A stretch of DNA of 64,000 nucleotides from Escherichia phage Ec_Makalu_001. The notes under the pieces were generated by a model. It was not told where the DNA came from. It made no database searches and was given only the letters and a program-made list of their open reading frames with translations. The translations under genes were made by a program, and so were the position numbers. Where the stretch lies: the sequence record MN894885.1. One strand, written 5' to 3'. This document shows, one piece after another, positions 7,464-58,989 of this stretch. Position 1 is the first letter of the stretch. Every line of letters begins with the position of its first letter.

Positions 7464-7981
7464 TGACAGAAACTAAACCTATGTTAAAATTTGTTGTTCC
7501 TGTAAAAACTTTAGAGATAAACGGGAAACATATCAAGATCCCAAAAATGGGTATTAAGCAACATCGATTATTAAAAGATGTTCGTAGCTGCGATGAAACA
7601 TTAAAGATTCTTCTTGATTCAATCTGCCCTGGGTTAAACGCTGCTGAGTCTGAATTGGTTATGCTTAATCTTTGTGCGTTTAATGGTAAATGTCTGGAAG
7701 AAAAAGACGGTCTTAAACTATCTGATGTGTATATTTGTACAGAAACTGAATTTGATTTAAATGGCAAAACATTTAAATTTAAAAATCCGATGTATACTTC
7801 TGACCCCATTATCGATGACGCTGATTTCTTGAGTCATCATTATCACGATCCTAGTGTAGACTTCCATGACTTCCCAGCTTTTATTATGGATTGGGCTACA
7901 GGATTAAGAAAAACTATTGCACTGGATACGCCGGAAGGTACTATCTATGGTGGAATTAACATATTGGATCGCCTATCATGA
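7463..7981 (+). CDS. 28: baseplate hub distal subunit gp28
   Basis: 172 aa; overlapping start/stop with gene 27; T4 synteny. Confidence 0.6.
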   Translation: MTETKPMLKFVVPVKTLEINGKHIKIPKMGIKQHRLLKDVRSCDETLKILLDSICPGLNAAESELVMLNLCAFNGKCLEEKDGLKLSDVYICTETEFDLNGKTFKFKNPMYTSDPIIDDADFLSHHYHDPSVDFHDFPAFIMDWATGLRKTIALDTPEGTIYGGINILDRLS

Positions 7982-9711
7982 ATGACGCATTAACATCATT
8001 TCGCGGGATGCGCAAGGAAGCGGAAGAAAATCCGATTGATAAACTTAACAAATTAGATAAACTTGATTCTATTGATAATTTGCAAGCCGCTACCGAATTG
8101 GTGGCGGAGACAGTAGAACAAAAATCTAATGAAGTTGTTGGTGCGGTAGAGGATAACACCGCAGCCAATGAATTAACGGCAGAGAATACACAATCTACCG
8201 CTGGCAATACCCAAAAAACTTATGAAGAATTGCAAAAACTCAATAATTTCTCTTCTCAGATGAATGAGAAATTACGTGGTTTTGGCGTTATGATGGAACG
8301 TAGATTTGGTGTTGTCAGTAAAATGGCGAGCGGTATTGGTGCGATTGAAGAAGCACTGAAAAAACCGGAACAACCGCAAACAATGCCATCACCTCAGCCA
8401 GTTTTGCCTACTGTACCGGAACAGCCTAATAATGACAACTATCAAGGTCTTCCAAAGAAAAAACCAGATGTTGATGACCGAAAGAAAAAGAACGCCACAG
8501 ATAAGCGTAATGCGGATTCTATGGAGAATCTTATTAAAGTTGTTCGTGGTGGATTTAAAGAAACCATAGGAATCTCTAATAAGGTCTTAGGGATGTTATT
8601 TAAGATCACCTTAACCGCAATGGCAGAAGCCGCAAAATGGGGTGCTATTTTGATGGGTATTGTTTTCGTCATTGATACCCTGATGGTTCATTTCAGATAT
8701 TGGAGCGATTTATTCGAAACAAAATTCGATGATTTTATGGATAAGGCCGGAGAATGGGCTGGACCAATTAGTGATATTCTAACAACTATTCGTCAAGTTC
8801 GAGATTATTGGTCTAAAGGCGAATATGGAGAATTAATTAAATCTCTTGTTATGGGTATTGGTGATGCATTCTATAAAACCTTTATCCAACTTGATCGAAT
8901 TATCACTACTGGTATTGCTAAAATTCTTCGCATGATTCCTGGTATGGGTGATTATGCCGATAAGTTAGAATATGGTGCTTTAAAATCTGCTGTCGCTCAA
9001 GGATATACGCCAAATGAAAGAGAACTCGAATTAATGGATAAGGTCGAGTCTGAACACGAAAAAGACAAGTATGGAGAGCGCACAGGGTGGACCGGAAAAG
9101 CCCGTGATATTGGCGAAGCTATCGGGGATTCTATTAAGGATAAAGTTAACGAAGGTCTTGTTAGTCTGGGTTGGCGAGATCAAAAGGATGTTGACGCAGA
9201 GAAGCGACAAGAAGAATTAAAGCGCGGAGAATATGAGTCTGTTTCTGCTGAACAACGATCTGCTAGTCGTAAACTTAGAATTAAAAGTGAGGGCGCGATC
9301 AACAATATTAATGAAGTTATGGAGAATTTGAGCGGTGACTATGACAAAGAAAGAATGGGAGAGTTGAAAAAGGATATTGATGTTTACCGTGAGAAAGTTC
9401 AAGATCCTACATTAGTTGAAAGTGATCGTTCTCAGTTAGAGCGTCTTATTGAAAAATTTGATGAGATGTATGCTGATAAAACTAAGGGTGTTGTGCAAAC
9501 ACAGCCAGTTCCTGCAACTGAAACGGAAACAGCAAAACAAGCGGAACGTACTGAACAAATGCAGAAACAAGCTGCAATCCAGCAACAAACGACAAATCAG
9601 ACCTCAAACGTAAATAATACACAAATTGTAACAAACAATAGAACTATTAAACAGGGTGCACCAACAACTAGAATTGATGCCCCAGGTACAATTAATATGG
9701 GGAACTTTTAA
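7978..9711 (+). CDS. 29: baseplate hub subunit / tail length determinator gp29
   Basis: 577 aa (T4 gp29 ~590 aa); coiled-coil-rich, Q/N-rich C-terminus; synteny. Confidence 0.7.
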   Translation: MNDALTSFRGMRKEAEENPIDKLNKLDKLDSIDNLQAATELVAETVEQKSNEVVGAVEDNTAANELTAENTQSTAGNTQKTYEELQKLNNFSSQMNEKLRGFGVMMERRFGVVSKMASGIGAIEEALKKPEQPQTMPSPQPVLPTVPEQPNNDNYQGLPKKKPDVDDRKKKNATDKRNADSMENLIKVVRGGFKETIGISNKVLGMLFKITLTAMAEAAKWGAILMGIVFVIDTLMVHFRYWSDLFETKFDDFMDKAGEWAGPISDILTTIRQVRDYWSKGEYGELIKSLVMGIGDAFYKTFIQLDRIITTGIAKILRMIPGMGDYADKLEYGALKSAVAQGYTPNERELELMDKVESEHEKDKYGERTGWTGKARDIGEAIGDSIKDKVNEGLVSLGWRDQKDVDAEKRQEELKRGEYESVSAEQRSASRKLRIKSEGAINNINEVMENLSGDYDKERMGELKKDIDVYREKVQDPTLVESDRSQLERLIEKFDEMYADKTKGVVQTQPVPATETETAKQAERTEQMQKQAAIQQQTTNQTSNVNNTQIVTNNRTIKQGAPTTRIDAPGTINMGNF

Positions 9712-11701: not shown

Positions 11702-11708
11702 TAAGCGA

Positions 11709-11737
11709 AAGGCGGGGACAATCACCCGCCTTTTTAT
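11709..11737. terminator. rho-independent terminator hairpin between convergent gene 54 and lipoprotein gene
   Basis: GGCGGG-loop-CCCGCC followed by T-run. Confidence 0.6.
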
Positions 11738-12219
11738 TTTGCTAAATCATTGCAATATTTTAGTGCCTTAGTTTGAAACTCTGCGCTGTTAAGTTCTTCA
11801 TAACGGTCATAATCACCGTTTAATGCTGCCTTTCTTGCTTCTTGTTCTATCTGCATGTCAGACATGATAATACAACGATCCCGCGCTTTCATCTTCTCAA
11901 GTTGTATAGACTCTTCTTGTTGCTTGCGCAATTCTTCTTGATGCTTCTTTTCTTCTCGTGCTTTCTCTTCCCGCGCTTCTTTGATTGCATCTTTGAACAT
12001 CTGCGTTTGTGGTGCTAAACCAACTTTAACGCGATCCACGTCTCGACGTTCCATTTTAGAAATAAAGCATGATTCGATCTGGTCATCGCTTGCATATGCT
12101 GCTTTACATTCACGAAGCAAGAAAACCGGATCTGATTTAGCATTCATCATAGCTTCCATGTTAGTACAACCAGTAAGCATGAATGCAGCCGCAAGACCAA
12201 TCAGTTTAATCATTTTCAT
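11734..12219 (-). CDS. putative lipoprotein (signal peptide with lipobox LTGC)
   Basis: 161 aa; N-terminus MKMIKLIGLAAAFMLTGC; charged coiled-coil-like remainder. Confidence 0.5.
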   Translation of the reverse strand: MKMIKLIGLAAAFMLTGCTNMEAMMNAKSDPVFLLRECKAAYASDDQIESCFISKMERRDVDRVKVGLAPQTQMFKDAIKEAREEKAREEKKHQEELRKQQEESIQLEKMKARDRCIIMSDMQIEQEARKAALNGDYDRYEELNSAEFQTKALKYCNDLAK

Positions 12220-13040
12220 TTAGTCACCTCACCGAAAATTGTAAATTGTCTACGATTCTCATCGCCGAAAGATTCTACTACGTCGTTTACCTTGATGCAA
12301 GTCCCGCGCGGTAAAATTACTTCACATTCGCAAGGATTCCATGCAATAGACCCAACAACAAAACCTTTATGATCTTTTACGTCAATTACCCATGATACAT
12401 TACAAGAATGTTGCATCTTTCCGGTCATTGATTCATATCGATTCTCACAATAAAGGCTAGTGCTGTTTGAAAGCCATCCTCCAAAGATGATCGGTGTCAT
12501 GCTGGTCGATACAAAGTTTTTAAAGGTAAATTCCTTATCTTCAATAATACGCTCTATTGTCTGAATGTCAAGATGTTGACCGCGATAAAGAGTACCGTTT
12601 AACTTTTCGGTTTTATCCATGACACAATCCATCAAATCGACAATCTCTGATATCTCATCGGTCATGTCTTCTTCCCCTAAGAGAGCACCATTTACCCATT
12701 CGTATTGTTCAGACACATAATCGCAGATTGCATTATATTCTGCTGGGGTTATGTTGTTATGTTTGTAATGTTTGAATACATTATCTCCAAAATCTTCGGA
12801 ATGTACTTCATACATCACATTAATGATTTTCTTGACAAATCCATAATCTTGCGTTTCTCGCTCAAGGAAACGGATAACTTTCACGTAATCATCAAAGTTA
12901 ATATGATCGCTGATCATTTCAGTGATCATGTAACCATTAATCCCCTCAATGCCATATGTTTCGATGTAATTATCCATACGTTCCATCATTGATTCGCGTG
13001 ATTCTTCTGAAAGGCGAAAATCCTGTAATTTCTTGAACAT
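12216..13040 (-). CDS. ADP-ribosyltransferase domain protein (Alt/Mod-like, short form)
   Basis: 274 aa; R-S-E triad pattern shared with adjacent Alt: LYRG, FVSTS, CECEVILPRG. Confidence 0.6.
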   Translation of the reverse strand: MFKKLQDFRLSEESRESMMERMDNYIETYGIEGINGYMITEMISDHINFDDYVKVIRFLERETQDYGFVKKIINVMYEVHSEDFGDNVFKHYKHNNITPAEYNAICDYVSEQYEWVNGALLGEEDMTDEISEIVDLMDCVMDKTEKLNGTLYRGQHLDIQTIERIIEDKEFTFKNFVSTSMTPIIFGGWLSNSTSLYCENRYESMTGKMQHSCNVSWVIDVKDHKGFVVGSIAWNPCECEVILPRGTCIKVNDVVESFGDENRRQFTIFGEVTK

Positions 13041-13059
13041 TTTAAACCTCCCATATAAC

Positions 13060-13093
13060 AGAAAACGGGGCTAGTATAAAACTAGTCCCCGTT
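13060..13093 (-). terminator. rho-independent terminator after alt
   Basis: Stem AACGGGGCTAGT / ACTAGTCCCCGTT with T-run on minus strand. Confidence 0.5.
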
Positions 13094-13119
13094 TGAGTCA
13101 ACCATTATTTCTTAAAAAA

Positions 13120-27048: not shown

Positions 27049-27926
27049 TAAAAGTCTCCGTAGTTAACCTGAAAACATTCTACACCGATTGTGCGGTACA
27101 TGTCAACCACTTGGTCACGGTCATCCACTGCCAAAACAACATGATAACGTGGTGCAATTTCCGAGAAAAAGATCTCTTTCTTCACTTCATGATCTGGACG
27201 TCGATCATTAGTTTCACGCTGGAAGTGATCGCTAGGTTCAATACCCTGTTCACGCAACCATTGCAGCGTATCTTCTTCGCAAACATCCTCACGCCCTGAG
27301 CATGTAATGATACGATAACCATTATCACGATACAGTTTAAGCATTTCGATCACTTGCGGACGCGGTTTATCTTCTTTGACCTTTGTCCAGTCAAACGGAT
27401 GACGACCGCCCTTATCCGCTAATGTTCCATCAATATCAAAGATCACTGCCTTTGGCAGCATGGTATTCGGTTTGTATACTTCTTGACCCATATATTCCTG
27501 CATCAGATAAAATTGGTTACGCAAATGAGATAGCGGAATTGCTTTCTCGCCGCGATAGAAATTACGTTTCTTTAGTGTCTCAAACGGTTCATTGAACACT
27601 TGTTCAGTATACACCGCATTAAATTCTTTTGCAAGTTCTTTGTAGAATACACGATGTTTTTCTTTCAGGTTGGTATCAGAGATAATGATACTCAATCCGC
27701 GTGATAGAGTCTCGCGAGCAATCATTCTCTGAACAGACTCTACCAGCTTTTCCTTTTCCTTAGTATATTTGTATTTCAAAGGTGAGTCAACACCAAACAA
27801 CATAAGACGAAGATCATCACGATTCACATTACGATAATTACTAAACCGTTTACACGTTTCCATAGCCCATGTAGTTTTACCGGACCCAGAACAACCAACG
27901 GTTAAAATCACTTCACATTTCGGCAT
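27048..27926 (-). CDS. pseT: polynucleotide 5'-kinase / 3'-phosphatase
   Basis: 292 aa; strong similarity to T4 Pnk (P-loop GCSGSGKTTWA; phosphatase motif VIFDIDGTLA; C-terminus GVECFQV). Confidence 0.9.
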   Translation of the reverse strand: MPKCEVILTVGCSGSGKTTWAMETCKRFSNYRNVNRDDLRLMLFGVDSPLKYKYTKEKEKLVESVQRMIARETLSRGLSIIISDTNLKEKHRVFYKELAKEFNAVYTEQVFNEPFETLKKRNFYRGEKAIPLSHLRNQFYLMQEYMGQEVYKPNTMLPKAVIFDIDGTLADKGGRHPFDWTKVKEDKPRPQVIEMLKLYRDNGYRIITCSGREDVCEEDTLQWLREQGIEPSDHFQRETNDRRPDHEVKKEIFFSEIAPRYHVVLAVDDRDQVVDMYRTIGVECFQVNYGDF

Positions 27927-28378
27927 TATTTCTCCTTCGGTTTACACCGTTCCTCATTGAGTTCTTTGCGATAATAACACATGATCAACTTACTTTCAAG
28001 TGTATATCTCTTAATATCAGCCAACCAGACTCTAAATTTTTGGGAGTCCTCCCATGACATAGAAACTCTAGGCTTACCGTCTATTGTATCCACATTCAGG
28101 TCAATGTCAACTTTTTCTATTGGTGCTGGTAGTGGTGGATGTAATTTCGGTTCCTGTGAATAATGGTCCAGTGTACACGAAGAAAGAGCAAATACAATAG
28201 GCACAGCGAAGACATGGATTATGGCGGTCTGAAAATTCTTATGTGTTTTCTTAAATATCCAGTGTATCACGAAAATTGAAAACACCATCAGGATAATAAT
28301 GCTTGCACCTATCCACAGATAATCAACCAGATTAAAATTGCTTATCTGCTCTTGCGTAGGCAATATTTCTATGCTCAT
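27926..28378 (-). CDS. membrane protein (one N-terminal TM helix)
   Basis: 150 aa; hydrophobic segment LWIGASIIILMVFSIFVIHWIF. Confidence 0.45.
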   Translation of the reverse strand: MSIEILPTQEQISNFNLVDYLWIGASIIILMVFSIFVIHWIFKKTHKNFQTAIIHVFAVPIVFALSSCTLDHYSQEPKLHPPLPAPIEKVDIDLNVDTIDGKPRVSMSWEDSQKFRVWLADIKRYTLESKLIMCYYRKELNEERCKPKEK

Positions 28379-28698
28379 TTAGTAGCCTCCTTTAATTCTT
28401 CGGTAAACTCCTTAAATGAGTCATTAAGCTGTTTCTCTACCAACTTGGGTTTTTGTGCTACTACATAGCCTCGTGTAGCGTCTTTCATTGCTTTGTTTTG
28501 TTCTTCTGCAAACTTAGTTCTTATTCCGTACATATCCTTTTGTAGTGAGTCTACGACCTTCATCTTTTCATCTGTCTTTTTCTTATACTCTGTAAATTCC
28601 TGATTCAGTCGATCTACCTCCTTTTTATTTTCCCACCACATATTGCCACCTACCCCCAGCAACACAGATATGATAACAATGTATATCAGCTTTGACAT
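28375..28698 (-). CDS. membrane-anchored coiled-coil protein
   Basis: Start assigned to internal ATG 28696-28698 (MSKLIYIVIISVLLGVGG...). Confidence 0.4.
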   Translation of the reverse strand: MSKLIYIVIISVLLGVGGNMWWENKKEVDRLNQEFTEYKKKTDEKMKVVDSLQKDMYGIRTKFAEEQNKAMKDATRGYVVAQKPKLVEKQLNDSFKEFTEELKEATK

Positions 28699-28742
28699 AT
28701 TACCCCCAACGACAAAAGGCGGGGAACTAGCCCCGCTTATTA

Positions 28743-29912
28743 TTACCAATCAATCTTATCAGCCGGAATAAGTTTCTTATAATTCCGTAGATAGTAAGTT
28801 TTCATTGAATCCAGAATACGGTCATAATCAAGGCCATCAAATGCAATCATCAGACACATGAAAATATATGCTTGTGCATCACCATGTTTACGTGATTCGA
28901 TAGTCGCATTTGATGCATATGTCTTTCTGTCTTCTCCAGCGTGTGCGTTATAAAATTCTGTTGCTGTCGTGAAGGCATTGCGAAGAATAGACCTGAATGC
29001 TTCCTCGAATAGCTCGATTCGTTCCAGTGCTCCCGGTTCGCCTTCATATGCAGCACGCAAATCATCGGTTTCGCTTTCTACGACATAGTAGATCAAGTTA
29101 TTAGGAAACATCGATGTATTTTTAATGTTATGCACACCAATATACCATTCACTTTTCACCTTGAACATCTGTCCGTCTTTGGTTCGTGCAACAATTCCTT
29201 CGATACCTTCTGCGGTCCGAACTTCGTCAAGAATATTGCCAAAACGCGCTGAATCAACCTGTAACGCATTTACCAGATGAGGACGTAGGATTGCGTCAGC
29301 AAATAGCATTTGATGCGGTACGTACTCTCCTGTGACGTTATGGCGTACATTCAGAAGTGTTAGCGACGGTTCAGAATATTCTACAACAATTCGGTTGCTG
29401 GGTGCTGTATATTCAAAGTTGAAAGTATAATCAGATCCAATATCGGCGATCTTAGCACGTAGTTCCGCATACTTCTCTGAATACAGAAGACCGTTTGCTC
29501 TCTCTGCCTGGCTTGAGTACAAGGCCGCTTTAGACTTCAACTGAACATAGCCGTTATCAATGTATGTGCTTACTAGACTACCGTCCATTTTGTCCATGAC
29601 CATTTCCACATCTTCCGGCTTAAAGCGAGCGCGATCATTCTCGCCTAAATTAAAAAACTTCTCCATAGGACGAGATGCAATGCGGACCGGACGACCTTTA
29701 TCGTCAATTTCAAACATGATCCCGCGACACTCTAACGCATCTGGTTTATTCCACATTTCCGGTTTGCTCAAGTACAGATAGCTAAAAATGCGCATACGGG
29801 TTTGCATCGCCGTAATTTCATCTTTGTAATAGAACGTATCAGATCCGTCACATAGTGCCATCAGATTTTTGAACAATGCTAAAACTTTTTTGTTGTTTTC
29901 TTTTGTTGACAT
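28743..29912 (-). CDS. rnlA: RNA ligase 1
   Basis: 389 aa; strong similarity to T4 Rnl1 (DALECRGIMFE, RIASRPMEKFFNL, KxDGSLVS). Confidence 0.85.
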   Translation of the reverse strand: MSTKENNKKVLALFKNLMALCDGSDTFYYKDEITAMQTRMRIFSYLYLSKPEMWNKPDALECRGIMFEIDDKGRPVRIASRPMEKFFNLGENDRARFKPEDVEMVMDKMDGSLVSTYIDNGYVQLKSKAALYSSQAERANGLLYSEKYAELRAKIADIGSDYTFNFEYTAPSNRIVVEYSEPSLTLLNVRHNVTGEYVPHQMLFADAILRPHLVNALQVDSARFGNILDEVRTAEGIEGIVARTKDGQMFKVKSEWYIGVHNIKNTSMFPNNLIYYVVESETDDLRAAYEGEPGALERIELFEEAFRSILRNAFTTATEFYNAHAGEDRKTYASNATIESRKHGDAQAYIFMCLMIAFDGLDYDRILDSMKTYYLRNYKKLIPADKIDW

Positions 29913-31333: not shown

Positions 31334-31552
31334 TTACTTGTTGTATTCATTCCACCAACGAGTAAGTTTATCGATTATTTTTGTGTTTCTATCCAATTTC
31401 TCCCACCGTTTACGCGGGTTTATAAGCCGGAATAGGTAGGGTGTACTTGTTAAGTGAACTCGGTCAAAATAATGGTTGATAAGCTGGCATTCAATTCTCA
31501 ATTTCATCTTTTTACGATGAAAATATGCAATTACTTGTTCTTCTGTTTCCAT
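31334..31552 (-). CDS. hypothetical protein (72 aa)
   Basis: ORF with RBS and promoter-like motif. Confidence 0.35.
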   Translation of the reverse strand: METEEQVIAYFHRKKMKLRIECQLINHYFDRVHLTSTPYLFRLINPRKRWEKLDRNTKIIDKLTRWWNEYNK

Positions 31553-31652
31553 ATGTTCCTCCGTTTCGATGCGTGCATTATGCTATGGCAAGATCCGATT
31601 GTCAACACCCAATAACAAAAAAGTCGCCACTATGGGCGACTTAGGTTAAACA

Positions 31653-32129: not shown

Positions 32130-33286
32130 AGATATTTCCCGAATCGGTTGTAGTCGTCGTCTGTTAAATCGGTATTAACCTGAGATACCAGATACATAAT
32201 CTCTACTTCTTGCGCCGCGTTTTGAACTTCGTCAGAGTTTAACCACTTACGCATCCACGGTAAAGGATGACGACGAACACTAAACGGGCTTTTCAGTCCG
32301 GCAGCACGCATACGGGAATCTGCCAGGTATTCTACATAGGTTTTCAGAATTTCCGGTGACAGGTTAGGAATTGCCCCCATTGCGAATAAGTGATCTACCC
32401 ATTCTTTTTCTTGCTCGACAACATCCAGAAAGATTTTCGTTGCTTCGTCTTCAAGTTCTTCCGCAATCTGTTTCCACTCATCACCATCAGCCCCCGTTTG
32501 CCATTGACGAATAATGTATTGTGTTCCTTTTAAGTGAAGTTGTTCATCACGCGCAATAAATTTCATGATCTTCGCGTTACCTTCCAGTAAACCACGTTCG
32601 GCAAAGCTGAAAGTACATGCAAAGGACACATAAAAACGGATTGCTTCCAAAGCATTAACGCAGTGTGCACACAGATAAATCGACGCCATCAGATCTCGTT
32701 TTGTATCTTCAAAAACTCTTCTTGCATCATCTAATGCTGTCTGGTCGTCTCGTTCTTCCCAATAGCGGAGATCTTCTTTTGCGTTCTCATACTTACGAAT
32801 CCAATAAAGAACATCATCATAATATTGCCCGATAGATTCCGCTCGCTTCATGATAGCAGGGTTATCGATGATCTGGTCAAACTCACTAGCCGGATCAATG
32901 AAACAGTTACGCATAATGTGAGTATAACTGCGGCTATGAATTGTCTCGCTGAATGTCCAGGTTTGTAACCATGTATCGAGAGTTGGATCAGATACAATTG
33001 GACCAAATGCTGCGGACGGTGCGCGACCTTGAATAGAATCAAGTAATGTCTGATACTTCAAGTTTTCTGTAAAGAAACGTTTTTCAACATCGCCCATATT
33101 CAGATATTGAATGCGGTCGGTTGCAAGTGAAATCTCTTCTGGACGCCAGAAAAATGACAGAGATTTTTCAATTAATTCTTCAAATACTTGATGACGCTGA
33201 ATGTCATAGCGAGCAATCCCTAAATCACTACCCAGAAACATTGGTTCGTTCATAATATCAACATGTTCGCGGTTAAATACGCTCAT
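32126..33286 (-). CDS. nrdB: ribonucleotide reductase small subunit (class Ia beta)
   Basis: 386 aa; di-iron ligand regions and C-terminal tail typical of NrdB; uninterrupted ORF. Confidence 0.9.
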   Translation of the reverse strand: MSVFNREHVDIMNEPMFLGSDLGIARYDIQRHQVFEELIEKSLSFFWRPEEISLATDRIQYLNMGDVEKRFFTENLKYQTLLDSIQGRAPSAAFGPIVSDPTLDTWLQTWTFSETIHSRSYTHIMRNCFIDPASEFDQIIDNPAIMKRAESIGQYYDDVLYWIRKYENAKEDLRYWEERDDQTALDDARRVFEDTKRDLMASIYLCAHCVNALEAIRFYVSFACTFSFAERGLLEGNAKIMKFIARDEQLHLKGTQYIIRQWQTGADGDEWKQIAEELEDEATKIFLDVVEQEKEWVDHLFAMGAIPNLSPEILKTYVEYLADSRMRAAGLKSPFSVRRHPLPWMRKWLNSDEVQNAAQEVEIMYLVSQVNTDLTDDDYNRFGKYL

Positions 33287-44719: not shown

Positions 44720-47700
44720 ATGGCAGATTTTTCTCAACATTTCAAGGCCACATTTGGCTTTGACGCTGGTAATGAAAAGGTCGTCAATGTAGCATTGGCT
44801 GATAAGAATGTCAACACCGATGCGGTCAACGTTGAATTTTTCAATTACCATAATGGTATTACTCAGTATGACACAACTCGCGGTTATGATCAATACGGAA
44901 CTACAATCTATCAAAACCGTCCGTATTATGCAAAAGAAGATATCACAAAGCCAGCAGGTGATTTTGACCCGACTAAATGGCAAGCACTGCGCACGGACCC
45001 ACGTTGGGATTATATTGCAGCAACTTCCGGTGATACTCCTTTAAAGTCTGGTGATTATATCGCAGCAGATGGTCAATTTGCAAACTTGACTTTCTCTATG
45101 CCAACTAAACCAGCAGAGGGAGACACTATAACAGTAAAAGATATCGGTGGCAAGTGTGGTGTTAACGAATTATCGTTCTTGAGTTCAGGACATGAGTTTT
45201 ACCATAACGGTAATGTGTATAACCGAAAATGGTATTGCACTACCCCGTATGCAATGAACTATTTCATCTTTGTTCGTAATCGTTGGCATGTTTATCAGAC
45301 AGGAACAGAGCCACGCGGTGTGTACGCACAGCCAGCGATTGATGCTATTCAAATGCAGAATGGTGACCAGGTATTTCGTCGTAGTTCGTTGGGTAATATT
45401 ACCTTAGTGCTTCCTAAGTTTGCCAACAATGGCGACATGATCCAGACTACAGACCTTGACGGATTAACCGCAACCAACCACGTTACGGTTAAAGTTCATG
45501 AGCACGCAGAAGAACAATCAATTGGCACGTCCGGTCTAAAAGAGATTATCGGTAAGCGTAGCGGTCATGGTGTATTCATCTTTGACAAGACGGAAAACTT
45601 ATGGCGTTTGTGGGATGGTGATCAGTCTGTTCGTCTTAAACCGATCATCGATGACACTCGCTTGCAACCTAATAGCTATGTTGCTGTATTTGGTGATCGT
45701 GATGTTACTCTGACGCTGCCGACCAATGTCGAGCCGGGTGATCGTATTCAAGTTTCTATGCAGTATATGAACGGAAACCAGAATTGCCGTATTATCACCG
45801 CCACAGAGGATACAAAAATCCTTATGCAGAAAAACATGGTTCAGTTTCCTAAGCGTAGCGAGTACCCATTCAATGGGACCGATACATGGACGGGAGTATC
45901 TGAATTGTCTTTCAACGCTGCAAATGATTATGTACCTTATCTGGAGTTCTCTTATTCAGAAGGTGATGATGGTAAGAAATACTGGTTGGTGGCACATGCT
46001 CACCCGATTGTAGAACGAGTAGATCCGACTCGTAAAGATCGTGTTGGTGTAATTGCACTGGCTACCCAGACTGAAACGAATAAAAACCATGAAGAGAATC
46101 CTAGCGACGAAGTTGCGGTGACTCCAAAGGTTCTGGCTAATAAAACAGCCAACGAAACTAGACGCGGTATTGCTCGCATTGCGACTCAAGCGGAAACGCA
46201 TCAAGATACTGGTTCTATCTTCCTGGATGATGTTATCGTTACGCCTAAAAAGTTAAATGATTGTGTTGCTACCGAAGCCCGTCGTGGCGTGATGGAAATT
46301 GCAACCCAGCACGAAACAAATGAAGGTTTAGACGATACCCGCGCTATTACTCCTAAGAAATTAGAAGAACGTCGCGCTTCCGAAGATCTCGCTGGTATTG
46401 CTGAAATTGTTCAGGCTGGCGGTAGTGCTGCCGCTCGACGTGGCGAAGCTGGTACAGGGATCTATAACATCAACGACCATGTTAAAATTGTTACGCCACA
46501 AAACATCAACGAAGTCAAGGCGACCGAAACTTCCCGTGGTGTTGGCTATCTGGCAACTGACGCGGAAGTGCAAGGGGCTACAGAATCAACCCCGCAAGAT
46601 GCTTTACTAATCACGACTCGCACGCTAACGAAACGTACTGCTACCGAATCGCGCACTGGTATCGCTGAAATTGCAACTCAGGAAGAAACAAACTTAGGTC
46701 AAAGTGATAACCATATCATCACGCCTAAAAAGCTGCATACTCGCCGCGCAACGGAAACTTTACATGGTTTAGCAGAAATTGCAACTCAGCCGGAATTTGA
46801 CGCAGGTCTTGACGATGCTCGCATTTCTACCCCATTGAAGATTAAAACCTTCTTTGAGAATGCACAGCGTTTGAAAGTAGATCCGACTCAGGGGCTTAAC
46901 CTTACTGGTGATTTGTGGCAAGGTATCATGATTCGCGGTCTGGATGCAACAGAAGACACAAAAGGTGTCGCTAAAGTTGCTACTACTCAGCTTACTGACG
47001 CTGGTCAAGATGATACTACAATCATCACTCCTAAAAAGCTGCAAGGCAAAAAGGCCACCGAAGGTAAAGAAGGTATTATCCGAGTTGGTACTCAAGCCGA
47101 AACCGTGGCTGGTACACTGGCTAATGTAGCAATTTCTCCGAAGAACTTCAAATATGTTGTTCAGACAGAGGATACATGGAAAGCAACCGAAGCTCGTCGT
47201 GGTTTCTTGAAAGTTGCTACTCAGGAAAACTGTTTTGTTGGTGACAATCTGCAAGGTTCTACTCAAGAACTAGGAAACTACCAGCATGACGGAATTGCTG
47301 TTACTCCGAAAGGATTAAACTACGCACTTGCTAATTTCTTGCCTAAGATGGCAACCGCTCAGAATAGTTTGAAATTGGGTAACGTAGAGGCCGCTAAATG
47401 GGCGCGTAGAGACATTGACCAGACCATAGAGAGCAATTACACGTTTAATAAAAACGTTAACGTGAAGGGCGATTTAGAGTGCTTAAAATCAGGTTCCTTT
47501 GAAACTCTGTATGTGACTAAGAACTCTACTGATGATCCGAGTAATGGTCATCTGGTGTTGGGTGAGCGTGGAGTTGACGGTCACACCGGAATTACTCTGC
47601 ATGGCACAACCGCATCGGAAGGCATGAAAAACTCCTGGTCTATTATCGTTGGTGGTACTGGAACGGCGCAAGCAGTTAATAGTGGCGCTATCGCTTTCGG

Positions 47701-51396: not shown

Positions 51397-54339
51397 ATGG
51401 CAGATTTAAGCAGAATCCAATTTAAACGTACTAGCACTAAAGGCCGTCGACCTGATGCTGGTACGATGAATCCGGGGGAATTGGCAATCAACCTTGCGGA
51501 TCAATATCTTCTTACTAAAAATGATTCCGGCGCTATTATCAATTTAAGTTGTCCTCCGGTTTATGACCGTGATGTTACAATGGCGGGTAAGGTTAAAGGA
51601 AATAATTATATTTTAAGTAAAACCGCCAATTATCTGGAAGACCAGACAGCGAGAGATCTTAACTACTTTGGTGCTTTCCGTACCAATAGTCTAGATGGAC
51701 TCATGGATCTAACCCTTAACGTTCCTCACTCTTCCGGTAAAGCGCATGGTCGAGGATTTACTTTCCGTTATGGGACTGGCGGATCTCGTGTTGAAACCTA
51801 TGGTTTTGATGTTCAGGGACAAAAAGCATTTAGTTATAAAATGTATCATGAAGGGGATAAACCGACTCCCTCAGAATTGAACGTTTATAGCAAACAAGAA
51901 GTTGACCGTATGTTTGTTAAAACCGTTAAACTTGCTACAGTTCCTGTTGATATCGTTGACGGTTATTTTAAATTAGCAACTGCATTGATTCCGCAAAACG
52001 GTCGTAGTGTATTTTTCCGTATTCATGGTGGTAACGGATATAACGTTACTGCATACGATCAAGTTGATATTGTAGAAATTGTTATTCGCAGTGGAAATAA
52101 TCGTCCTAAAGGTGTTAACGTTATTGCATACCGCCGAAATACAAACAAAGCATTTGATGTTTTGGCTGTTAATACTTCTGGTGATAACTATGATATCTAC
52201 GTGAAATATCAGCGTTACACTGATAACGTTATTGTTGAATTTGGTAAAAGTGTTGATGTTGATCTGGTGGTTCATGACGTTCCAGACTTTGTTGTTGATC
52301 GTCCTGTTGGTGATAATGTTATTGGCGGTCGCGCGGTAACTCTTTTTAACACCGAAAACAAACGAGGTGTGTTGAGTTTTGACGATAACACACAAAATAG
52401 TTATGATATTGTTCACTTGAGTAATGATAAAGGTACTGGAAGGAAATATATTCGTAAATTCCGTAGTAACTATAATGAAATGATCTGGCATGAGACGGTT
52501 CAAGGTTCCAGTTATCGACTCGCCACGGGTAGTACAGATGCTCAGGAAATTATAACTATTGAATCTAGTAGCTCAATTGCTGGAACTCATAAAGGTAATA
52601 TTATTTCTGGTCGTATGCTGTTAAATGGCGGATCTAATGCCATTACACTACGCCGACCTGCTGGTCAGTCTAATCATATCGCTTTTCAGGATAACCGCAC
52701 CGGAGATATTACTCGTCAAGGATGGATCGGTTATGCAAACGCTGATACTAACGTTTTTGAATGGTATAGTGATGTAGGCGGTAGTTCTATTCGTCAACAT
52801 ATTGACGGCCAGATAGAACTTCAAACTGGCAATATGAAGCGAGTTTATACTAACGCTCAATTCATCTCAATGAATAGCGACGCCTACCGTATGCTCTATG
52901 GTAATTATGGTGCATTCTGGCGTAATGACGGCGTTAAAGTTTATCTTCTTTCTACTGCCGAAAATGATAAATTGGGCGGATGGAATACTTATCGTCCATT
53001 CATTTATGATTTAACTTCCGGTAACGTTCAATTAGGTGGTGATGGTAACGAAGATGCATTAACTTTAGAATGTGCTTCTCGTGCCGCTCGCTTTAGTAAT
53101 GACGTTTACATTAAGAAAGGGCTTTTGACTTTCGACGCTGGGCGCGCTGGGTCTCGCGATTATATTCGATTTAATCATTGGGGTGATAGCAATAATGCTC
53201 GTGATAACGTTTTGTACATAGAAGATAGTCAAGGCCGACATTTTAGCACAGAACGTGCGATGGGTACTGGTGCTCTTAAAGCATACTTCTTAGGCGATCT
53301 TGAAGTCGGTGGTAAGTTTACTTGGGGTAAAAATACAGCTACATCTAGCTTTAATATTCGTGCATGGGGTAGTGATTCTCGTAAGCAAGTATTAGAATGC
53401 GCGGATGAAAGTGGTTGGCATTGGTATACCCAGCGACCGGGCGGTCCGGGTACTTCGGCAATTGAGTTTGCCATCAACGGTACTGTTAAGCCTCAAGCAA
53501 TTCATACTGGCGGCAATATTCTTTTGAACGGTGCCGATATTGAATTTCGTCGCACCGGTAATAAGCATTTGTGGTTTAGAGATCCAGACGGTTTAGAGTT
53601 AGGCTTGATGTACTGCGATGATGCTGGTGCTATTCGCTTCCGTGGTCAGAAACAAGCCCAGACGTGGAAATTTGCAGATAAAATGATCCAGTTGGAATCT
53701 GGTACTGTATCTGGTGGCGGTAATGGCCTGATTCGTGGTGAAGTTGCTGGCGGTAGTTGGGCTAGCTGGCGTGACCGTCCTGCTGGTCTTATGGTTGGGT
53801 GTCCTCAATCCGTTGACTCGGCACATAACGTATGGAAAGCGACGCATTGGGGTAAATATCATATCGCAGCAATGGGTGTACATGTTCCTAGTGGTACTAT
53901 TACCAATGCTTTAGCTCGCCTAAACGTTCATGACGCCAACTTTGACTTTAGCGCCTCCGGTGACCTGTCGGTAGGTCGTAATGGTTCGTTTAACGATGTT
54001 TATATTCGTTCTGATGCTCGCCTTAAAATCAACAAAGAAGAGTATAAAGAGAATGCCACCGATAAAGTTAATCGCTTGACGGTATACACCTATGACAAGG
54101 TTAAATCTTTAACCGACCGTACTGTCATTGCTCATGAAGTTGGTATTATTGCTCAGGAACTTGAAAAAGAATTGCCGGAAGCAGTAACAACTTCTAAGGT
54201 CGGCGATCCTGATAAGCCAGAAGAGATCTTAACAATTTCTAACTCTGCTGTCAACGCTCTTTTAATTAAGGCGTTTCAGGAAATGAGCGAAGAATTGAAA
54301 GCCGTTAAAGCTGAACTAGCGGAACTTAAAAAGAATTAA
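51397..54339 (+). CDS. 37: long tail fibre distal subunit gp37 with C-terminal intramolecular chaperone-like domain
   Basis: 980 aa; position after 36; C-terminal ~120 aa (SDARLKINKEEY...VGIIAQELEKELPEAV...coiled-coil) resembles the self-cleaving chaperone domain of endosialidase/T5 pb1-type fibres. Confidence 0.7.
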   Translation: MADLSRIQFKRTSTKGRRPDAGTMNPGELAINLADQYLLTKNDSGAIINLSCPPVYDRDVTMAGKVKGNNYILSKTANYLEDQTARDLNYFGAFRTNSLDGLMDLTLNVPHSSGKAHGRGFTFRYGTGGSRVETYGFDVQGQKAFSYKMYHEGDKPTPSELNVYSKQEVDRMFVKTVKLATVPVDIVDGYFKLATALIPQNGRSVFFRIHGGNGYNVTAYDQVDIVEIVIRSGNNRPKGVNVIAYRRNTNKAFDVLAVNTSGDNYDIYVKYQRYTDNVIVEFGKSVDVDLVVHDVPDFVVDRPVGDNVIGGRAVTLFNTENKRGVLSFDDNTQNSYDIVHLSNDKGTGRKYIRKFRSNYNEMIWHETVQGSSYRLATGSTDAQEIITIESSSSIAGTHKGNIISGRMLLNGGSNAITLRRPAGQSNHIAFQDNRTGDITRQGWIGYANADTNVFEWYSDVGGSSIRQHIDGQIELQTGNMKRVYTNAQFISMNSDAYRMLYGNYGAFWRNDGVKVYLLSTAENDKLGGWNTYRPFIYDLTSGNVQLGGDGNEDALTLECASRAARFSNDVYIKKGLLTFDAGRAGSRDYIRFNHWGDSNNARDNVLYIEDSQGRHFSTERAMGTGALKAYFLGDLEVGGKFTWGKNTATSSFNIRAWGSDSRKQVLECADESGWHWYTQRPGGPGTSAIEFAINGTVKPQAIHTGGNILLNGADIEFRRTGNKHLWFRDPDGLELGLMYCDDAGAIRFRGQKQAQTWKFADKMIQLESGTVSGGGNGLIRGEVAGGSWASWRDRPAGLMVGCPQSVDSAHNVWKATHWGKYHIAAMGVHVPSGTITNALARLNVHDANFDFSASGDLSVGRNGSFNDVYIRSDARLKINKEEYKENATDKVNRLTVYTYDKVKSLTDRTVIAHEVGIIAQELEKELPEAVTTSKVGDPDKPEEILTISNSAVNALLIKAFQEMSEELKAVKAELAELKKN

Positions 54340-58166: not shown

Positions 58167-58195
58167 AGTATAGGGGATCACCGATCCCCTGTCAA
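58167..58195 (-). promoter_or_regulatory. early sigma70-like promoter, palindromic spacer (TTGACA-GGGGATCGGTGATCCCC-TATACT)
   Basis: Minus-strand; upstream of 51-aa gene. Confidence 0.5.
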
Positions 58196-58788: not shown

Positions 58789-58989
58789 CTAGTTTTTATT
58801 ATTTTCGTGAAAATTTTTCGTCGCCTCATGTGCTTTTCGCTGGGCTTCTTGTTGTGCTTGCTGGCGTGCTGCCTCTTGTGAAGCCATAACGGAAGCATTT
58901 GCAGCAGTTACAGCCGCTACCATCGCTGCGGTATTAGCATTTACAGTACATGCACTAGCCAGCAAAGCAATTGCAATCATTTTCTTCAT
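58789..58989 (-). CDS. small secreted protein (66 aa) with signal peptide
   Basis: MKKMIAIALLASACTVNA...; Q/A-rich mature part. Confidence 0.4.
   Translation of the reverse strand: MKKMIAIALLASACTVNANTAAMVAAVTAANASVMASQEAARQQAQQEAQRKAHEATKNFHENNKN

Follow-up and report, generated by a model that had tools for sequence, protein, structure and literature searches.

The locus described here raises the question of what a phage of the T4 type might gain from coding for a small lipoprotein immediately beside gene 54. The gene concerned lies on the minus strand at 11734..12219 of a stretch of 64,000 nucleotides of DNA from Escherichia phage Ec_Makalu_001 (sequence record MN894885.1), which at its full length is referred to throughout as the window. 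Between 7700 and 16200 the window is 99.7% identical in DNA sequence to Escherichia phage Ec_Makalu_002, the region being that of a Krischvirus (RB49-like, Straboviridae). The observation that does most to answer the question is that the mature domain of this lipoprotein has been swapped, in the manner of a cassette, between phages that are otherwise nearly identical, a pattern which, as far as comparison of the sequences goes, suggests that the protein takes part in competition at the envelope of the cell.

The reading frame is a real, conserved gene of the RB49-like (Krischvirus) coliphages and not a chance open reading frame (ORF), since it matches phrog_16112 (a family of which the function is listed as unknown) over its full length (E=3.8e-108, with all 161 residues aligned to positions 1-161 of the profile), is found in 58 of the 58 Krischvirus genomes of the phage collection (tblastn, with members of the genus counted by gp5), has a dN/dS of 0.12 relative to an 84%-identical homologue on a 170-kb human-gut contig, and retains an invariant lipobox and four further invariant cysteines. 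None of the sequenced members of the genus has lost it, and within each of the allele types described below ω lies between 0.12 and 0.24, indicating purifying selection. The gene comprises 161 codons and a stop; it begins with an ATG that overlaps the TGA of the upstream gene, which codes for a small Alt-like ADP-ribosyltransferase (ART), in the sequence ATGA (12216-12219), and 5 nt before this ATG a Shine-Dalgarno sequence GAGGTG (12225..12230, minus strand) can be read directly from the DNA, a ribosome-binding site being annotated at the same place. The protein is already known to the databases, the window gene being equivalent to RB49p182 (annotated as a “hypothetical protein”) and to Makalu002_184, while phage W115 has a “putative lipoprotein” and the UniRef entry for phage KFS-EC reads “Lipoprotein”; it is a predicted member of the phage-encoded outer-membrane lipoproteins. 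It may be added that in phage E26 (MN655998) the gene, there of type B2, is intact at 112026-112565 of the record yet unannotated, GenBank showing no gene in the space that separates gene 54 from the ART gene.

The claim, made in an earlier reading of these letters without database searches (the sequence-only reading), that the protein starts with a signal peptide carrying the lipobox LTGC is borne out. The signal peptide and lipobox occupy codons 1-18 (12166..12219, minus strand; the codon for Cys18 is 12166-12168) and have the layout MKMIKLIGLAAAFM-LTG-C18, with an n-region MKMIK and an h-region LIGLAAAFM of mean Kyte-Doolittle hydropathy 2.04. The window protein conforms to a PROSITE PS51257-type lipoprotein rule (a positive n-region, an uncharged hydrophobic h-region, [LVI][ASTVI][GAS]C, and the cysteine at position 15-35), and G17 and C18 are invariant across the family; one group of alleles has LNGC, which lies outside the strict form of the rule. 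This segment, part of a block of upstream DNA that is about 97% identical, is nearly invariant even between alleles of 24% identity. The residue at position +2 is Ala, Thr or Ser in 16 of the 16 family members examined and never Asp, and sorting to the outer membrane is therefore predicted from the Lol avoidance rule. Where proteins from outside the family match, they do so only in the signal peptide of a lipoprotein (TraV, Cor, Lpp and others) and within residues 1-45, while the four invariant cysteines besides the lipidated Cys18 are what might be expected in an oxidising compartment, and so support export. Judged from these features, the protein is almost certainly an outer-membrane-anchored periplasmic lipoprotein.

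The predicted mature protein has 144 residues and an isoelectric point of 5.4, 40% of its residues being charged, and it contains no transmembrane segment (maximum KD19 0.15). The further claim of a highly charged helical region also held up, in that residues 71-110 are 57-60% charged and fall largely within a single helix (72-133) in the AlphaFold2 model. This model (predicted local distance difference test score, pLDDT, 88) is all-helical and includes helices at 31-41 and 45-65, and a model of the allele from phage Whisky (pLDDT 86) has the same order of helices in spite of an identity of 24%; both comprise two short helices, a continuous helix of 62-63 residues and two further short helices. 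Three parts can be distinguished on this basis, although the boundary of the first is approximate. The N-terminal mature part would extend over residues 19-82 (11974..12165, minus strand), taking in helices 31-41 and 45-65 and also the opening stretch of the long helix, together with C38, C51 and a [KR][KR]D-x4-R-x-G motif that includes D60 and G67. The middle of the long helix, residues 83-103 (11911..11973, minus strand), is rich in Glu, Lys and Arg, is nearly devoid of hydrophobic residues, and varies in length between alleles, having an 11-residue duplication in P0032 and a 5-residue deletion in P0006; it may well serve as a stalk or spacer. The C-terminal part, residues 104-161 (11737..11910, minus strand), holds the invariant C116, C156 and G135 as well as Y137. 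Across the family, down to an identity of 21%, the invariant residues are G17-C18, C38, C51, C116, C156, D60, G67 and G135, and the spacing from C116 to C156 is exactly 40 residues in 14 of the 16 members examined. Disulfides C38-C51 and C116-C156 probably staple one terminal helical unit each, a pairing that is proposed solely from the positions of the helices and the conserved spacing of the cysteines.

Searches for relatives of this protein lead back to its own family. An exhaustive hidden Markov model (HMM) search of 1.84 billion representative proteins gave 11 matches at E <= 0.001, one of them a spurious eukaryotic protein and the other ten true representatives of the family (nine full-length lipoproteins and one fragment of 103 residues); the full-length members have 155-174 residues and all possess a lipobox. 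There was no match in Pfam, nor in PADLOC (where the same is true of the ART), while the sequence profiles of NCBIfam and PDB gave matches at the level of the signal peptide only. Foldseek with the lipoprotein model against PDB returned nothing below E=1, and a structure search of BFVD returned family members only. The lipoprotein is thus an orphan helical fold, unrelated to any characterised phage lipoprotein.

The most informative property of the gene is the manner in which it varies. Eight of the 58 Krischvirus genomes carry alleles of which the product is 29-32% identical overall to the window protein; these are called type B here (with B1 and B2 as sub-types), as opposed to the type A of the window, and seven of the eight genomes were fetched for comparison (Whisky, JK32, PTE-Eco09, AV108, 011D4, E26 and G37-3). 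For the mature part by itself, the identity to the window protein falls to 24% in Whisky and JK32. In these two phages, and likewise in PTE-Eco09 and AV108, the DNA of alt, of the ART gene and of the signal peptide matches the window at about 97% identity as far as 12163-12187, where the signal peptide ends; beyond this point the mature domain cannot be aligned, and genes 54, 48 and 29 are 74-80% identical. The clearest cases are 011D4, E26 and G37-3, where the identity to the window is about 97.4% on either flank and only a segment of about 430 bp, corresponding to the mature domain, has been replaced by a non-alignable allele (24% amino-acid identity). The 5' breakpoint of the exchange coincides with the junction between signal peptide and mature protein, and homology resumes at 11750. 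In the same genomes Alt is 99-100% and the small ART 97-99% identical, and gp5 is at least 98.8% identical in all 58 genomes, whichever lipoprotein allele they carry.

When the window is compared with E26, its first 50 kb or so align at 94-98%, and of all the interruptions it is the lipoprotein segment that most clearly replaces like with like. The rest are indels of the presence/absence kind, except perhaps for a second short non-aligning segment with alignable flanks at 31335..31563 of the window (32392-32744 in the E26 contig, L023), which may be either another allele replacement or an indel in a small early ORF. The type-B alleles are themselves mosaic, the N-terminal unit and stalk having a different history from the C-terminal unit: 011D4 and PTE-Eco09 are 98% identical in the N-domain and 76% in the C-domain. 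A gene that is never lost, is conserved within each type and yet is swapped at a domain boundary behaves as would be expected of a specificity determinant in some conflict. It can also be noted that gp29 (the tape-measure/hub protein; gene 29, 7978..9711, plus strand) is markedly divergent within the genus, with an amino-acid identity of 53% between the window and JK32; relative to a Hadza gut contig it is 72% identical, with ω of 0.18. By contrast, gp5 is at least 98.8% identical in the 58 genomes.

The explanation favoured here, albeit tentatively and at rather less than even odds, is that the lipoprotein is an early, envelope-acting factor for exclusion or competition, superinfection exclusion being understood in a broad sense. 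According to this proposal, an infected E. coli cell would make the protein early, from a sigma70/PeSL-type promoter, as the product of the second gene of a two-gene cassette that begins with the small Alt-like ART. The precursor would leave the cytoplasm through Sec and acquire its lipid at Cys18, and signal peptidase II would remove the signal peptide. Its N- and C-terminal helical units would be joined by the 62-residue helix with its Glu/Lys/Arg-rich stalk of variable length, which could keep the C-terminal unit at a distance of several nanometres from the outer membrane, on its periplasmic side. The infected cell would have its envelope altered such that other phages were excluded or placed at a disadvantage. 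A target that lies in the periplasm or crosses it is more likely than masking of the receptor of the long tail fibres. More specific, and correspondingly improbable, is the idea that in RB49-like phages the protein stands in for Imm and Spackle as a modular, outer-membrane-anchored “periplasmic strut”, whose conserved lipid anchor and rigid charged helix would present exchangeable helical units. These would intercept the DNA-delivery apparatus of competitors or some other machine that crosses the envelope, swaps at the signal-peptide junction serving to retarget their specificity; if this were true, the exclusion factors of phages would gain a structural class not seen before, in which specificity is exchanged in the manner of cassettes.

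For phages of the T4 type, what is understood of superinfection exclusion comes, as far as is known, solely from Imm and Sp of T4. When RB49 0-95 kb and the window were searched by tblastn for T4 Sp and Imm, only noise was obtained, with the provisos that about 4 kb of RB49 (~95-99 kb, among structural genes) lay outside the coverage and that searching at the level of BLAST leaves room for remote analogues; moreover neither imm nor sp is annotated in the syntenic slots of RB49 (NC_005066), between genes 61 and 41 and between uvsX and 43. The RB49-like phages therefore appear to be without Imm and Sp, leaving vacant a role in exclusion that the present gene could fill. RB49-like phages turn up commonly in samples from gut and sewage, and their use in therapy is widely proposed. 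The universal retention of the gene, the predicted targeting of its product to the envelope and the swaps of its mature domain make it a concrete and easily testable candidate for competition among Krischviruses or for some other envelope function. If different alleles conferred different exclusion specificities, this would bear on the design of phage cocktails, in which several Krischvirus isolates are often combined; and if they did not, there would still be a protein of orphan fold with a well-defined predicted location in the cell.

There are several points that weigh against exclusion. The literature searched yielded no data on the expression or function of RB49p182 or of the Krischvirus lipoprotein, nor on exclusion by it, and lipidation, sorting to the outer membrane, the disulfides and early timing are all predictions. 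The protein shows neither homology nor similarity of fold to the characterised exclusion proteins Llp/Cor and Sp, and its alleles co-vary with neither the tip of the long tail fibre nor gp5, no partner having been found. Hyper-variability could also arise without selection, through fast evolution and recombination from diverged lineages: four of the seven fetched type-B genomes carry a diverged gp54/48/29 block as well, and the flank-identical 011D4, E26 and G37-3 may descend from a single event.

Among the alternatives, that which the sequence-only reading had in mind was receptor masking after the fashion of T5 Llp, in which the lipoprotein would bind, from the periplasmic side, the very outer-membrane receptor that the phage itself uses (OmpA, for RB49-like phages on K-12), block adsorption of sister phages and save progeny from being lost on debris. 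This seems doubtful at best. It has in its favour that the protein is a predicted outer-membrane lipoprotein, probably of the inner leaflet as for T5 Llp and the Cor proteins of T1/phi80/N15-type phages, with a lipobox signal peptide and apparently an early-type promoter in a virulent phage; that those proteins provide precedents for masking by lipoproteins; and that OmpA, which has a periplasmic domain, is used by RB49-like phages (PMC9569957). However, similarity to Llp or Cor does not extend beyond the signal peptide: the Cor family phrog_1119 matches residues 1-45 only (E=0.008), the NCBIfam Cor model matches one of 12 lipoprotein family members (E=0.058), and no Llp family was matched. 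Llp has about 60 residues, and Llp and Cor together span roughly 60-80, so that the stalked, all-helical mature protein of 144 residues, with its four conserved cysteines, is more than twice the size of Llp. Nor does the gene lie beside one for a receptor-binding protein, being placed between gene 54 and alt, about 40 kb from gp37 in the window and about 65 kb from gp38 in RB49 (where, incidentally, the gp38 adhesin gene, at 45367-46143 of the record, is far from gene 37). Each allele type is found with several types of gp37 tip and vice versa. Relative to the window, which itself is at most 94% identical in this tip to any record in the phage collection, the identity of the tip is 93.7% for Whisky (B1), 60.9% for JK32 (B1), 82-85% for most B2 phages and 46.9% for G37-3 (B2), while among type-A phages it ranges from 94% to 47% (Makalu_002 60.2%, ECD7 93.4%). 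The tip is in any case highly mosaic among Krischviruses (gene 37, 51397..54339, plus strand), Makalu_002 being 99.7% identical at the lipoprotein locus and only 60% in the C-terminus of gp37. The requirement for OmpA on K-12 likewise fails to track the allele, since RB49 and Cognac49 (type A) and Whisky49 (type B) depend on it, while Brandy49 (type A) does not (PMC9569957). This want of co-variation with gp37 tip or receptor use weakens the Llp-style reading, for which there is neither homology nor a link to receptor-binding proteins; the broader suggestion of exclusion is still a reasonable guess, because the protein is a predicted outer-membrane lipoprotein from an early cassette that is never lost and has hyper-variable, swappable alleles, in phages (to judge from RB49) with no Imm or Sp detectable by BLAST. 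A somewhat better, if still unlikely, prospect is that the protein works in the manner of T4 Spackle (Sp, gene 61.3), inhibiting some part of the tail that crosses the periplasm (the gp5 lysozyme, the spike, or the tape-measure/hub) and so replacing the missing Sp and Imm, which like it are small, early, envelope-located products of a T4-type phage. The lack of a detected homologue of either in RB49, the predicted periplasmic location with a stalk reaching toward the peptidoglycan, and the position next to the hub and tube genes 29-48-54, with four type-B genomes co-inheriting a diverged block there, would all suit such a function. Against this, Sp is soluble in the periplasm and Imm lies in the inner membrane; similarity to Sp is absent in sequence and fold (hhalign against T4 Sp aligns signal peptides only, and Foldseek agrees); gp5 is nearly constant regardless of allele; and 011D4, E26 and G37-3 pair a type-B allele with type-A gp29/48/54, so that there is no strict co-variation with the tail-tip proteins tested.

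Structural or housekeeping roles have also to be weighed. A strut between outer membrane and peptidoglycan, similar to Braun lipoprotein (Lpp/OprI) and possibly attached through a C-terminal lysine, could stabilise the envelope, set the periplasmic spacing or tune lysis or lysis inhibition, although we would put little weight on this. Like Lpp the protein has an N-terminal lipid anchor on the outer membrane followed by a long α-helix (62-63 residues) of similar length, and in ten of 12 lineages it ends in Lys; RB49 moreover has rI, rIIA/B and t, that is, the circuitry for lysis inhibition. However, the mature part is not homologous to Lpp (hhalign again aligns signal peptides only), it has additional helical units with predicted disulfides at both ends, and the terminal residue is Asn in two of the 12 lineages (Asn being found in Whisky/JK32, P0048 and P0031), from which it follows that Lys is not essential; a housekeeping role would furthermore provide no obvious driver of cassette-like allele replacement. 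About as improbable is that the lipoprotein is a functional partner of the small ART, or has some other role in host takeover or anti-defence unrelated to competition between phages. The two genes are confined to the RB49-like clade, and the pair is conserved, overlapping or nearly abutting, in all the lineages looked at, including those of only 21-24% identity. A signal peptide is, however, lacking from the ART, which would place the two proteins in different compartments; neither has a PADLOC match; and the two do not co-evolve, Whisky and JK32 having an ART 97-99% identical to that of the window beside a lipoprotein of 24% identity. By far the least probable is that the protein belongs to the lysis machinery as its outer-membrane component (an o-spanin or u-spanin). 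Among phage outer-membrane lipoproteins no class is commoner than the spanins, and RB49, Phi1 and JSE are listed in the T4-type spanin families (PMC6139136); the T4 PseT.2-type o-spanin is, like the present protein, an outer-membrane lipoprotein of a T4-type phage with conserved periplasmic cysteines. The window, however, has its own T4-type PseT.3/PseT.2 pair at 28375..28749 and 27926..28378 (phrog_739, E=8e-27; phrog_812, E=2e-31), while the lipoprotein has no C-terminal transmembrane domain and no adjacent i-spanin gene (the gene upstream being that of the ART), and its promoter context is of early type, without a nearby late-promoter match on its strand; on these grounds the spanin reading can be ruled out. 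As to the o-spanin itself (27926..28378, minus strand), the longest form of its ORF has 150 codons, but the true start is probably internal, because the lipobox FALSSC lies at about residues 63-68 and the PHROG match begins at residue 53.

Turning to the surroundings of the gene, the plus strand carries, in order, uvsY, 25, 26, 51, 27, 28, 29, 48 and 54, while converging on gene 54 from the minus strand are the genes for the lipoprotein and the ART, then alt and a long run of small ORFs of early type. The ART gene (12216..13040, minus strand) codes for 274 residues and matches PF03496 and phrog_15144; it is the upstream partner of the lipoprotein gene in every family context examined, the two overlapping or nearly abutting in each. 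The order alt, ART (264-282 residues, PF03496), lipoprotein, convergent to gene 54, is found in seven distant lineages with fetched contigs as well as in the cultured phages; on one short contig (L005) the genes next to the lipoprotein gene could not be identified. The full-length phrog_15144 ART is restricted to the RB49-like clade and is always 5' of the lipoprotein gene, a strict pairing.

The ART and lipoprotein genes are headed by what appears to be a PeSL-type regulatory element (13041..13119, minus strand), placed between alt and the ART gene, which consists of an AT-rich stretch, a promoter-like TTGACT-17-TATACT (13101..13073), a GGGG...CCCC stem-loop over the -10 box, and then a run of T. 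PeSLs of RB49 and phi1 have been shown to be strong sigma70-type promoters as well as terminators (Arbiol et al. 2010, PMC2839356). Similar TTGACA-GGGG...CCCC-TATACT repeats occur between genes on the minus strand of the window at 58195, 31045, 22963, 22569, 21423, 17895 and 13101, and in all of them the stem-loop sits between or over the promoter hexamers, an architecture that matches the mobile regulatory PeSL cassettes of RB49/phi1 (PMC2839356). Since there is such an element upstream, and since the roughly 14 kb upstream of the lipoprotein gene contain no match to the late promoter TATAAATA on the minus strand, early expression from a sigma70/PeSL-type promoter is likely. A second promoter-like site (TTGACA-16-TATTAT, 12544..12571, minus strand), which matches the consensus at 11 of 12 positions and is identified by that match only, lies within the ART gene and could drive the lipoprotein gene alone. 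At the other end a GC-rich hairpin (11707..11734) is common to the convergent transcripts of gene 54 and the lipoprotein gene, scoring as a terminator on the plus strand and having a weak U-tract on the minus strand; the swapped cassette, too, has its 3' edge here. In being headed by a PeSL-type element and in lying at the edge of the hyperplastic early region, the unit of ART and lipoprotein genes resembles the cassettes of a PeSL and an ORFan described for RB49/phi1 (PMC2839356), but it differs from them in that the lipoprotein exchange, instead of running from PeSL to PeSL, has one breakpoint inside the gene, where the signal peptide ends, and the other at the terminator that the two transcripts share.

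The sequence-only reading had further held that a position convergent to gene 54 sets this gene apart from T4. As regards orientation this does not stand, because in T4 itself alt.-3, alt.-2, alt.-1 and alt lie on the strand opposite to gene 54 in the same convergent layout, and four other enterobacterial T4-like phages, belonging to four genera, also have the alt cluster convergent to gene 54, which in them is adjoined by a gene of 92-97 codons (labelled alt.3-like in Shf125875). As regards gene content it does, the slot in T4 being occupied by alt.-3; what is specific to Krischvirus next to gene 54 is the presence of the small ART and the lipoprotein. Kinship of the lipoprotein with T4 Alt.-3 was considered and ruled out, Alt.-3 having 96 residues and no signal peptide.

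Finally, the window contains a second candidate early lipoprotein gene, at 58789..58989 on the minus strand. This ORF gave no PHROG or PADLOC match, and tblastn with it came back empty, probably on account of the low-complexity filter. It has 66 codons and reads MKKMIAIALLASAC followed by TVNAN..., its lipobox being LASAC and its mature part, of about 52 residues, rich in Ala and Gln; it lies head-to-tail in a minus-strand array of small ORFs, and its size is nearer to that of Llp and Cor than is that of the 161-residue lipoprotein.

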